This document shows positions 24,521-27,749 of a DNA stretch of 64,000 nt, piece after piece. Origin of the DNA: Eledone cirrhosa (Eukaryota); assembly GCA_964016885.1 (NCBI GenBank), contig OZ024742.1, forward strand, positions 209,188,001 through 209,252,000. Direction: 5' to 3'. The translations under genes were made by a program, and so were the position numbers. The notes beneath the pieces are model-generated. The model worked only from the letters and a program-made list of their open reading frames with translations. It had not been told where the DNA came from and ran no database searches. Each line of letters opens with the position of its first letter. The stretch's first letter is position 1.

Positions 24521-24521
<1 letters not shown>

Positions 24522-25750
24522 GACATAGAATATTCGAAAATATTCTGTATGTTTATAATAAACATTTTGAAGACCTAATCGCTATAGAATAGAATACGTC
24601 ACGTATTACAATTAGATTCTCGATAAAAGCAAGGGAAGTAATCTACGCGTTTCATTCTTGTTAGAAATCATCAGGACTACATATCCAGTGCTTTTATCGA
24701 GAATGACACAGCTAGAGACTTATAGAATACTTAGCTGTGTACAGGAACTGGTTTGAAAGAGCGGTTGCCGGTCCGGCAGAAATTAGAAATTGGAATAAAT
24801 GCTCTGAAATAGCGATATATATGTGAATATAGACATAGAATATTCGAAAATATTCTGTATGTTTATAATAAACATTTTGAAGACCTAATCGCTATAGAAT
24901 AGAATACGTCACGTATTACAATTAGATTCTCGATAAAAGCAAGGGAAGTAATCTACGCGTTTCATTCTTGTTAGAAATCATCAGGACTACATATCCAGTG
25001 CTTTTATCGAGAATGACACAGCTAGAGACTTATAGAATACTTAGCTGTGTACAGGAACTGGTTTGAAAGAGCGGTTGCCGGTCCGGCAGAAATTAGAAAT
25101 TGGAATAAATGCTCTGAAATAGCGATATATATGTGAATATAGACATAGAATATTCGAAAATATTCTGTATGTTTATAATAAACATTTTGAAGACCTAATC
25201 GCTATAGAATAGAATACGTCACGTATTACAATTAGATTCTCGATAAAAGCAAGGGAAGTAATCTACGCGTTTCATTCTTGTTAGAAATCATCAGGACTAC
25301 ATATCCAGTGCTTTTATCGAGAATGACACAGCTAGAGACTTATAGAATACTTAGCTGTGTACAGGAACTGGTTTGAAAGAGCGGTTGCCGGTCCGGCAGA
25401 AATTAGAAATTGGAATAAATGCTCTGAAATAGCGATATATATGTGAATATAGACATAGAATATTCGAAAATATTCTGTATGTTTATAATAAACATTTTGA
25501 AGACCTAATCGCTATAGAATAGAATACGTCACGTATTACAATTAGATTCTCGATAAAAGCAAGGGAAGTAATCTACGCGTTTCATTCTTGTTAGAAATCA
25601 TCAGGACTACATATCCAGTGCTTTTATCGAGAATGACACAGCTAGAGACTTATAGAATACTTAGCTGTGTACAGGAACTGGTTTGAAAGAGCGGTTGCCG
25701 GTCCGGCAGAAATTAGAAATTGGAATAAATGCTCTGAAATAGCGATATAT
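24521..25750 (-). repeat. Retrozyme-like 310-bp tandem array, left block (~4 units)
   Basis: agacatagaa at 24521, 24831, 25141, 25451; minus-strand HHRs at 24638, 24948, 25258, 25568. Confidence 0.95.
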
Positions 25751-27749
25751 CTAATTGTAATACGTGACGTATTCTATTCTATAGCGATTAGGTCTTCAAA
25801 ATGTTTATTATAAACATACAGAATATTTTCGAATATTCTATGTCTATATTCACATATATATCGCTATTTCAGAGCATTTATTCCAATTTCTAATTTCTGC
25901 CGGACCGGCAACCGCTCTTTCAAACCAGTTCCTGTACACAGCTAAGTATTCTATAAGTCTCTAGCTGTGTCATTCTCGATAAAAGCACTGGATATGTAGT
26001 CCTGATGATTTCTAACAAGAATGAAACGCGTAGATTACTTCCCTTGCTTTTATCGAGAATCTAATTGTAATACGTGACGTATTCTATTCTATAGCGATTA
26101 GGTCTTCAAAATGTTTATTATAAACATACAGAATATTTTCGAATATTCTATGTCTATATTCACATATATATCGCTATTTCAGAGCATTTATTCCAATTTC
26201 TAATTTCTGCCGGACCGGCAACCGCTCTTTCAAACCAGTTCCTGTACACAGCTAAGTATTCTATAAGTCTCTAGCTGTGTCATTCTCGATAAAAGCACTG
26301 GATATGTAGTCCTGATGATTTCTAACAAGAATGAAACGCGTAGATTACTTCCCTTGCTTTTATCGAGAATCTAATTGTAATACGTGACGTATTCTATTCT
26401 ATAGCGATTAGGTCTTCAAAATGTTTATTATAAACATACAGAATATTTTCGAATATTCTATGTCTATATTCACATATATATCGCTATTTCAGAGCATTTA
26501 TTCCAATTTCTAATTTCTGCCGGACCGGCAACCGCTCTTTCAAACCAGTTCCTGTACACAGCTAAGTATTCTATAAGTCTCTAGCTGTGTCATTCTCGAT
26601 AAAAGCACTGGATATGTAGTCCTGATGATTTCTAACAAGAATGAAACGCGTAGATTACTTCCCTTGCTTTTATCGAGAATCTAATTGTAATACGTGACGT
26701 ATTCTATTCTATAGCGATTAGGTCTTCAAAATGTTTATTATAAACATACAGAATATTTTCGAATATTCTATGTCTATATTCACATATATATCGCTATTTC
26801 AGAGCATTTATTCCAATTTCTAATTTCTGCCGGACCGGCAACCGCTCTTTCAAACCAGTTCCTGTACACAGCTAAGTATTCTATAAGTCTCTAGCTGTGT
26901 CATTCTCGATAAAAGCACTGGATATGTAGTCCTGATGATTTCTAACAAGAATGAAACGCGTAGATTACTTCCCTTGCTTTTATCGAGAATCTAATTGTAA
27001 TACGTGACGTATTCTATTCTATAGCGATTAGGTCTTCAAAATGTTTATTATAAACATACAGAATATTTTCGAATATTCTATGTCTATATTCACATATATA
27101 TCGCTATTTCAGAGCATTTATTCCAATTTCTAATTTCTGCCGGACCGGCAACCGCTCTTTCAAACCAGTTCCTGTACACAGCTAAGTATTCTATAAGTCT
27201 CTAGCTGTGTCATTCTCGATAAAAGCACTGGATATGTAGTCCTGATGATTTCTAACAAGAATGAAACGCGTAGATTACTTCCCTTGCTTTTATCGAGAAT
27301 CTAATTGTAATACGTGACGTATTCTATTCTATAGCGATTAGGTCTTCAAAATGTTTATTATAAACATACAGAATATTTTCGAATATTCTATGTCTATATT
27401 CACATATATATCGCTATTTCAGAGCATTTATTCCAATTTCTAATTTCTGCCGGACCGGCAACCGCTCTTTCAAACCAGTTCCTGTACACAGCTAAGTATT
27501 CTATAAGTCTCTAGCTGTGTCATTCTCGATAAAAGCACTGGATATGTAGTCCTGATGATTTCTAACAAGAATGAAACGCGTAGATTACTTCCCTTGCTTT
27601 TATCGAGAATCTAATTGTAATACGTGACGTATTCTATTCTATAGCGATTAGGTCTTCAAAATGTTTATTATAAACATACAGAATATTTTCGAATATTCTA
27701 TGTCTATATTCACATATATATCGCTATTTCAGAGCATTTATTCCAATTT
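25751..27749 (+). repeat. Retrozyme-like 310-bp tandem array, right block (~6.4 units, opposite orientation)
   Basis: ctaattgtaa at 25751, 26061, 26371, 26681, 26991, 27301, 27611; ends at ttccaattt then (TA)n. Confidence 0.95.
25996..26038 (+). ncRNA. Minimal type-I hammerhead ribozyme (repeated every 310 bp)
   Basis: gtagtc CTGATGA t-ttct-aaca-agaa-t GAAA cgcg TA gattac; stem I extended by attctcgataaaagca/tgcttttatcgagaat. Confidence 0.88.

Follow-up and report, generated by a model that had tools for sequence, protein, structure and literature searches.

A two-armed hammerhead retrozyme array from Eledone cirrhosa and its probable insertion by Penelope-like element machinery

We analysed a stretch of 64,000 nucleotides from Eledone cirrhosa, referred to below as the window, and found that the tandem array at positions 24517-27749 consists of two inverted arms of a 310-bp non-coding unit carrying a type-I hammerhead. 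The array is almost certainly a young non-LTR retrozyme. Its architecture indicates that it was very probably made by the machinery of Penelope-like elements (PLEs), and a circular monomer RNA probably served as the template. For the whole mechanism, in which a PLE enzyme would have copied a circular 310-nt retrozyme RNA from both cut strands of the target, we estimate a probability of roughly three in four.

The block had been described in an earlier note on this DNA as a single array of about 10.4 units of 310 bp, without differences among the units and flanked by (TA)n tracts. The period of 310 bp was confirmed, with 10.43 units in total across both arms, and (TA)n-rich target flanks were identified from the sequence and the repeat finder on the left (24439-24516) and on the right (27750-28205). 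The array is not single, however; its left part is the reverse complement of its right part. As evident from the Tandem Repeats Finder results, the block was split into 24505-25750 (4.0 copies) and 25749-27749 (6.5 copies), both with a period of 310. The left arm (24517-25750, minus strand) contains 3.98 units and four hammerheads, with four CUGAUGA motifs on the minus strand, and showed 0 mismatches to the unit of the right arm over its whole length. The right arm (25749-27749, plus strand) contains 6.45 units and six hammerheads, with six CUGAUGA motifs on the plus strand, and showed 0 mismatches to the unit. The RNA-5' ends of the two arms abut at a central junction (25749-25750) with a 2-bp overlap, AT, where unit position 108 of the left arm is joined to position 1 of the right arm. 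The outer (RNA 3') end of the left arm lies at a position that we call site A, and its edge is ambiguous as far as 24505 because site A resembles (TA)n. The outer end of the right arm, at unit 141, marks site B. Within the first plus unit (25852-25889, plus strand), site A (unit 104-113) and site B (unit 139-141) are separated by a 35-nt tail, and the two sites are putative start sites of reverse transcription. The inversion of the arms, which the earlier note had missed, is the most informative feature of the block. No open reading frame of at least 150 aa was found within the array, and an open reading frame for reverse transcriptase and GIY-YIG endonuclease, which would mark an autonomous PLE, is absent from it; the arm maps consist of unit sequence only, with no LTR part, and no tRNA was found in the window.

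Each unit holds one type-I hammerhead, giving ten hammerhead cores in the array. In the first plus copy (25996-26038, plus strand), stem I is formed by GTAGTC/GATTAC, CUGAUGA occupies 26002-26008, stem II carries a U.U at its base and is followed by GAAA, stem III comprises one A-U pair and a palindromic CGCG loop (ACGCGU), and cleavage is predicted after 26032 (GUA). A 16-bp clamp helix (25972-25987 with 26045-26060, plus strand), seen in the fold and in covariation, encloses the hammerhead. These parts, including the clamp, agree with the drawing in the earlier note. The hammerhead and clamp fold at -31.9 kcal/mol (z -6.5), a value matched by 0 of 200 shuffles, and the stem III palindrome pairs with itself at -7.5 kcal/mol. 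Rfam returned no match in the window at the gathering score; below that threshold, a weak match to Hammerhead_HH9 was found (19.2 bits, E 0.054). According to the available text of PMC7229834, axolotl hammerheads with a one-pair stem III over a palindromic loop need dimers, and the available text of bioRxiv 10.64898/2026.07.22.740005 reports that 8 of 9 Xenopus retrozyme dimers failed to cleave.

Covariation across the sister families described below was analysed in 21 hammerheads, which were picked for diversity out of 59 extracted. We found that 92.3% of the cells pair and that 22 of the 29 pairs vary on both sides, compared with 40-53% pairing and 4-6 pairs changing on both sides in slid controls; these values are to be read with the structure drawn from the copy in the window and with a shuffle control inflated by relatedness. 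In the clamp helix, both sides change in 9 of the 13 tested pairs, and the C3-G8 pair is replaced by U3-A8 in 8 sequences of the set. The catalytic core was hit by no fixed (majority) variant in the young arrays that were mapped. The covariation and the spared core together argue for hammerhead function.

The exact 43-nt core of the unit occurs 4,177 times (2,126 + 2,051) in the 3.0-Gb genome, and a reversed control occurs 0 times. Forward-strand arms ending in (TA)n number 1,035 at site A and 652 at site B, which suggests roughly 2,000 insertions; the corresponding reverse-strand counts are inflated by overlapping matches. We mapped 53 arrays. Besides the one in the window, 12 were selected through the ribozyme core and 40 through one of the ends, and all of these others lie within the initial 80 Mb of a single chromosome (C1). 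One array (L111), which adjoins a gap and duplicates L112, was dropped, leaving 52. The dispersed arrays of variable unit number anticipated from the window alone are thus present in the genome and, together with the short non-coding tandem unit and the type-I hammerhead in each unit, they sustain the initial assignment to the non-LTR retrozymes.

The mapped arrays revealed a strict pairing of ends. We found that 41 of the 52 arrays have an inverted second arm, and in all of these a minus arm is followed by a plus arm. In the 40 two-armed arrays with both ends visible (the far end of L041 lies outside the view), one outer end lies at site A, about unit position 104-113, and the other at site B, position 139-144, 35 nt apart; the order was AB in 22 and BA in 18, and arrays of the A+A or B+B type numbered 0 of these 40. 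The 35-nt tail was accordingly present at one end only in 40/40. Ten of these 40 arrays had been selected without reference to an end. The 11 single arms comprised nine that end at A, one that ends at B and one (L033) that ends at B beside a gap. The target is AT-rich, with a TA-rich flank at 38/41 left ends and 36/40 right ends, and no target-site duplication signal was detected in the young family (8/50 compared with 13.6% across loci), although TA targets hide such a signal.

The same layout was observed in the PLEs of this genome. In the young family PLE-A, which encodes reverse transcriptase and GIY-YIG endonuclease, the ends lie 36 nt apart and were of the A+B type in 5/5 inverted copies in view; in PLE-C, the tail is about 44 nt long and the ends were paired in 4/4 and 8/8 copies, giving paired ends in 17/17 autonomous PLEs overall. 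The PLE-C arms contain full-length tandems with a period of 3,127 bp (L299+L300, L297+L298, L295 and L303), as if the PLE RNA itself had been copied as a circle. A pair of PLE copies in the window (8683-13118) is also inverted within (TA)n and has the same layout, with ends offset by about 79 nt. The help of PLEs, which the earlier note cited as proposed for metazoan non-LTR retrozymes, is therefore supported as probable by an A+B end rule that the array shares with PLEs of the same genome. A PLE with a terminus homologous to the retrozyme was not found in 152 PLE-centred loci (30 for PLE-A, 30 + 40 loci and 2 extra stretches for GIY-YIG matches, and 50 for PLE-C), out of tens of thousands of candidates in the genome. 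We rejected PLE-C as a partner, despite an 11-nt word shared near its end, given that its sites are in another register and its tail measures 44 nt, and a PLE beside the arm in L033 was not counted since it is separated by a 200-N gap.

Both arms of an array usually carry the same sequence variants. Among the 33 of the 41 two-armed arrays whose arms each span a whole unit, both arms had the same haplotype in 31, whereas comparison across loci gave 12.6% and the highest count in 5,000 permutations was 13. The exceptions were L040, with a change in one unit, and L115, in which the haplotype truly switches partway along an arm; in L041, one unit likewise shows a switch. Fifteen haplotypes were found among the arrays, but only 76 minority variants, mostly singletons, in 141,295 bases, from which it follows that the arrays passed a one-unit bottleneck and are very young, in line with the recent origin that had been ascribed to the array. 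These data suggest that both arms are usually copied from one template. The rule of one template per insertion is not strict, given these switches inside single arms of L115 and L041, and shared haplotypes could alternatively arise from one variant dominating a cell. The changes within an arm in L115 and L041 are both A250G, and A-to-G substitutions on the RNA strand make up many of the fixed variants; such changes could reflect RNA editing or template switching.

The lengths of the arms fit an exponential distribution (mean 1,566, p 0.26), with a maximum of 8,459 bp and up to 27 units. The A arm was the longer arm in 21/40 arrays; neither arm thus limits the length of the other, and a fold-back origin of one arm as a copy of the other was rejected. 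A linear cleaved monomer would run off at the cleavage site, so a pile-up of inner ends is expected there, and this was not seen: 0 inner ends lie at the cleavage site and 1/92 at unit 280-290 (3.3 expected). At unit 261-296, a range picked after looking at the data, 1/92 was found compared with 10.7 expected.

We also examined the junctions between the arms. Thirty of the 41 have no insertion, and 20 of these 30 show microhomology of at least 2 nt, against a chance expectation of 18.3% (p 8e-9, with two values read off manually). The other 11 junctions hold 1-272 inserted nt, often copies of nearby unit sequence. The longest insert, 272 nt in L036, derives in sense orientation from a different retroelement clustered on C25, as expected of an RNA template switch. 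Its source is a dense LINE cluster (L074-L084, C25:19.1-23.9 Mb), which we take from its motifs to be of the site-specific, CRE/R2-like type. Rfam at the gathering score was empty for four filler-source loci.

From these patterns we infer the following course of events. Transcripts of an array would cut themselves after GUA; because stem III consists of one pair and a palindromic loop, the active form is probably a double hammerhead. The cleaved monomers would be ligated into circles. A PLE endonuclease would then nick both strands of a TA tract, and each target 3' end would prime reverse transcription, usually on the same circle, with site A serving as the start for one of them and site B, 35 nt away, for the other. 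How far each enzyme rolls round the circle would be random, and microhomology-mediated end joining would finally unite the two cDNAs. The array had been attributed to one rolling-circle reverse transcription; the rolling circle is favoured here, but the single event does not hold, since the inverted two-arm geometry needs two cDNAs, one primed per target end, joined in the middle of the array.

The alternatives differ mainly in the template, the enzyme and the site of growth. The same PLE twin priming might have taken place with a parent array's long linear transcript, left uncleaved, as the template instead of a monomer circle, which we consider unlikely. Such a template would suit the weak stem III, homogeneous parents give homogeneous daughters, and seamless cleavage sites require no ligation; moreover, uncleaved RNA was the main substrate of a lizard PLE in vitro in the available text of PMC11167929. 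A multimer, however, allows the A sites of different units to be used, yet 0/40 arrays were A+A, and 15 haplotypes fixed per array need a one-unit bottleneck, whereas copying of a multimer would lead to mosaics. It is less probable still that a PLE inserted a short seed whose arms then grew locally by unequal crossing-over or slippage, as has been proposed for retrozymes, including those of Xenopus, in bioRxiv 10.64898/2026.07.22.740005 (available text). Local growth would fit the few variants that recur or lie next to one another within arrays (L036 and L097) as well as one duplicated junction (L085), and inverted arms could be homogenised by gene conversion. Local amplification is nevertheless disfavoured by our data, as minority variants are mostly singletons and the longest arrays occur in the youngest family (median 2,369 bp, n=50) whereas older sister families are short (median 478 bp, maximum 683, n=30), a comparison between samples that were chosen differently and in which old arrays may have shrunk.

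L1 is known to produce inverted 5' segments with microhomology, and an L1-, RTE- or CRE-type LINE could in principle have inserted the array by ordinary twin priming; a retroelement fragment that we take to be CRE/R2-like was in fact captured at one junction. We regard this as very improbable: poly(A) and a clear duplication are missing, and both outer ends are fixed 35 nt apart, as in the genome's PLEs. Long identical repeats are error-prone in assembly, and L033 and L111 adjoin gaps, so that the inversion or the unit number might come from fold-back reads or a collapsed repeat. This is the least credible of the alternatives, given that left and right flanks differ, the junctions are asymmetric and locus-specific, the ends obey the rule, and the layout is common to 10%-diverged sister families and to protein-coding PLEs.

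The copying of a circular RNA by PLE machinery can be compared with known systems. For metazoan non-LTR retrozymes, RNA circles have been shown and PLE helpers proposed (PMC7229834, available text), and a review states that retrozyme repeats show no conserved motif revealing the helper (PMC7761336, available text). As in the coral, mussel and axolotl retrozymes covered by the available text of PMC7229834, the family described here has 150-450-bp non-coding tandems, a type-I hammerhead, low GC and thousands of copies; it is similar to axolotl HHR_Amex1 in its palindromic stem III of one pair and to HHR_Amex2 in the U.U at the foot of stem II. Those retrozymes are described there as head-to-tail, and the word 'inverted' has 0 matches in the main text, whereas the arrays here are two-armed with fixed paired ends and are described at the DNA level. 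Endonuclease-bearing PLEs share the tandem and inverted 5'-truncated copy, the tail of 30-40 bp at one end only (PMC8557442), the (TA)n targeting, the two internal start sites, which in the lizard PLE define the tail in vitro, where both strands of AT-rich DNA were cut and extended (PMC11167929), and a hammerhead that precedes the first start site by about 130 nt, as far as the available text of both sources goes. Unlike them, the retrozyme has no open reading frame, a closed 310-nt unit and no homologous PLE terminus found. Non-autonomous Chlamys PLEs such as MRC1 have a 3' end resembling their own autonomous family, and most Chlamys are without canonical hammerheads, unlike the retrozyme here (PMC8557442, available text). 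The link between retrozymes and PLEs is also seen in Xenopus, where retrozymes derive from PLE pseudo-LTRs; there it rests on co-occurrence and phylogeny, and the words 'tail', 'junction' and 'orientation' have 0 matches in the available text (bioRxiv 10.64898/2026.07.22.740005). The retrozyme class and the two-armed PLE layout are thus already known, and in the openly accessible main texts searched, retrozyme arrays with inverted arms and a tail were not found described.

For animal retrozymes, mobilisation by PLEs has been a proposal, and rolling-circle copying competes with local amplification; the PLE insertion signature reported here provides direct genomic evidence on their movement at base resolution. 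The haplotypes act as natural barcodes for an origin from one template, which long PLEs show less easily, and the 310-nt RNA, with its two start sites, could be tested in vitro as a minimal substrate. The same inspection can be applied to coral, mussel, axolotl and Xenopus retrozymes. There is about an even chance that each array records, at the level of a single molecule, how a pair of PLE proteins acted on one RNA circle generated by the ribozyme. The two enzymes would start 35 nt apart and roll round that circle, each primed by a different strand of the target, and their products would be stitched together. If so, the spread of retrozymes and the long-unexplained tandem, inverted, tailed shape of PLEs would come from one mechanism, and about 2,000 insertions, mostly near-perfect inverted repeats and often kilobases long, would recently have been written into this genome.

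The unit was also observed in three sequencing runs with different organism codes (X1, X3 and X17) as one contig of 331-340 nt at a depth of 10-12, and the X17 contig has a variant common in this genome. Between 76 and 100% of the unit's words were present in 20 runs from 16 studies with 17 organism codes, and a Hi-C run, the fourth of the runs inspected in this way, yielded 0 reads. A contig of 340 nt is compatible with a closed loop and equally with a collapsed tandem array, trace carry-over or a shared element, and we therefore give it no weight as evidence.

An older sister-family insertion, 68-75% identical, lies in the window at 58356-58947; it has the two-armed A/B layout in (TA)n and a hammerhead with a 3-bp stem III at 58774 (plus strand). 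The sister families keep the 310-316-nt circular arrangement, the A/B register and a near-invariant tail motif. Matches to the tail plus TA number 5,146, and the young family accounts for 37 of the first 100; a further 20 loci matching the tail proved to belong to sister retrozymes and not to PLEs. A crude classifier assigned 13 A+B, 4 A+A and 9 unclear ends to 26 sister arrays; inspected by eye, 3 of the 4 A+A arrays have a B end, and the array in L135 stops inside the tail. Sister retrozymes with a UUGAUAA core (U3-A8) and a longer palindromic stem III were seen at L090:855-954 and in L189-L205. The strength of helix III varies across the superfamily, and the weakest helix III accompanies the longest arrays. 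At L149, an imperfect direct repeat of about 44 bp (1421-1464 and 1913-1956) bounds a sister single-arm insertion in non-TA DNA and is possibly a long target duplication.

Several other elements were noted. A 5'-truncated PLE with reverse transcriptase and GIY-YIG endonuclease lies at 3286-5184 (minus strand) of the window; its family has at least 70 near-identical copies, many with 777-aa open frames, and a microsatellite-rich 3' region of roughly 1.4 kb, and no canonical hammerhead was found near this PLE. From their motifs, the PLE families compared above are presumably Neptune-like and Hydra-like, and the segment 5099-8171 presumably consists of broken RTE-type LINE fragments. A 3' end related to the PLE at 8683-13118 occurs at 23600-23780, immediately to the left of the TA tract of the array. 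The segment 23981-24500 is an unrelated hammerhead-bearing repeat with a core on the minus strand near 24152-24196, which elsewhere (L210 and L313) forms tandems of roughly 495 bp with an internal TA tract. A pattern scan also revealed minimal hammerhead-like motifs at 35800 and 47006 (plus strand) and at 61652 (minus strand).
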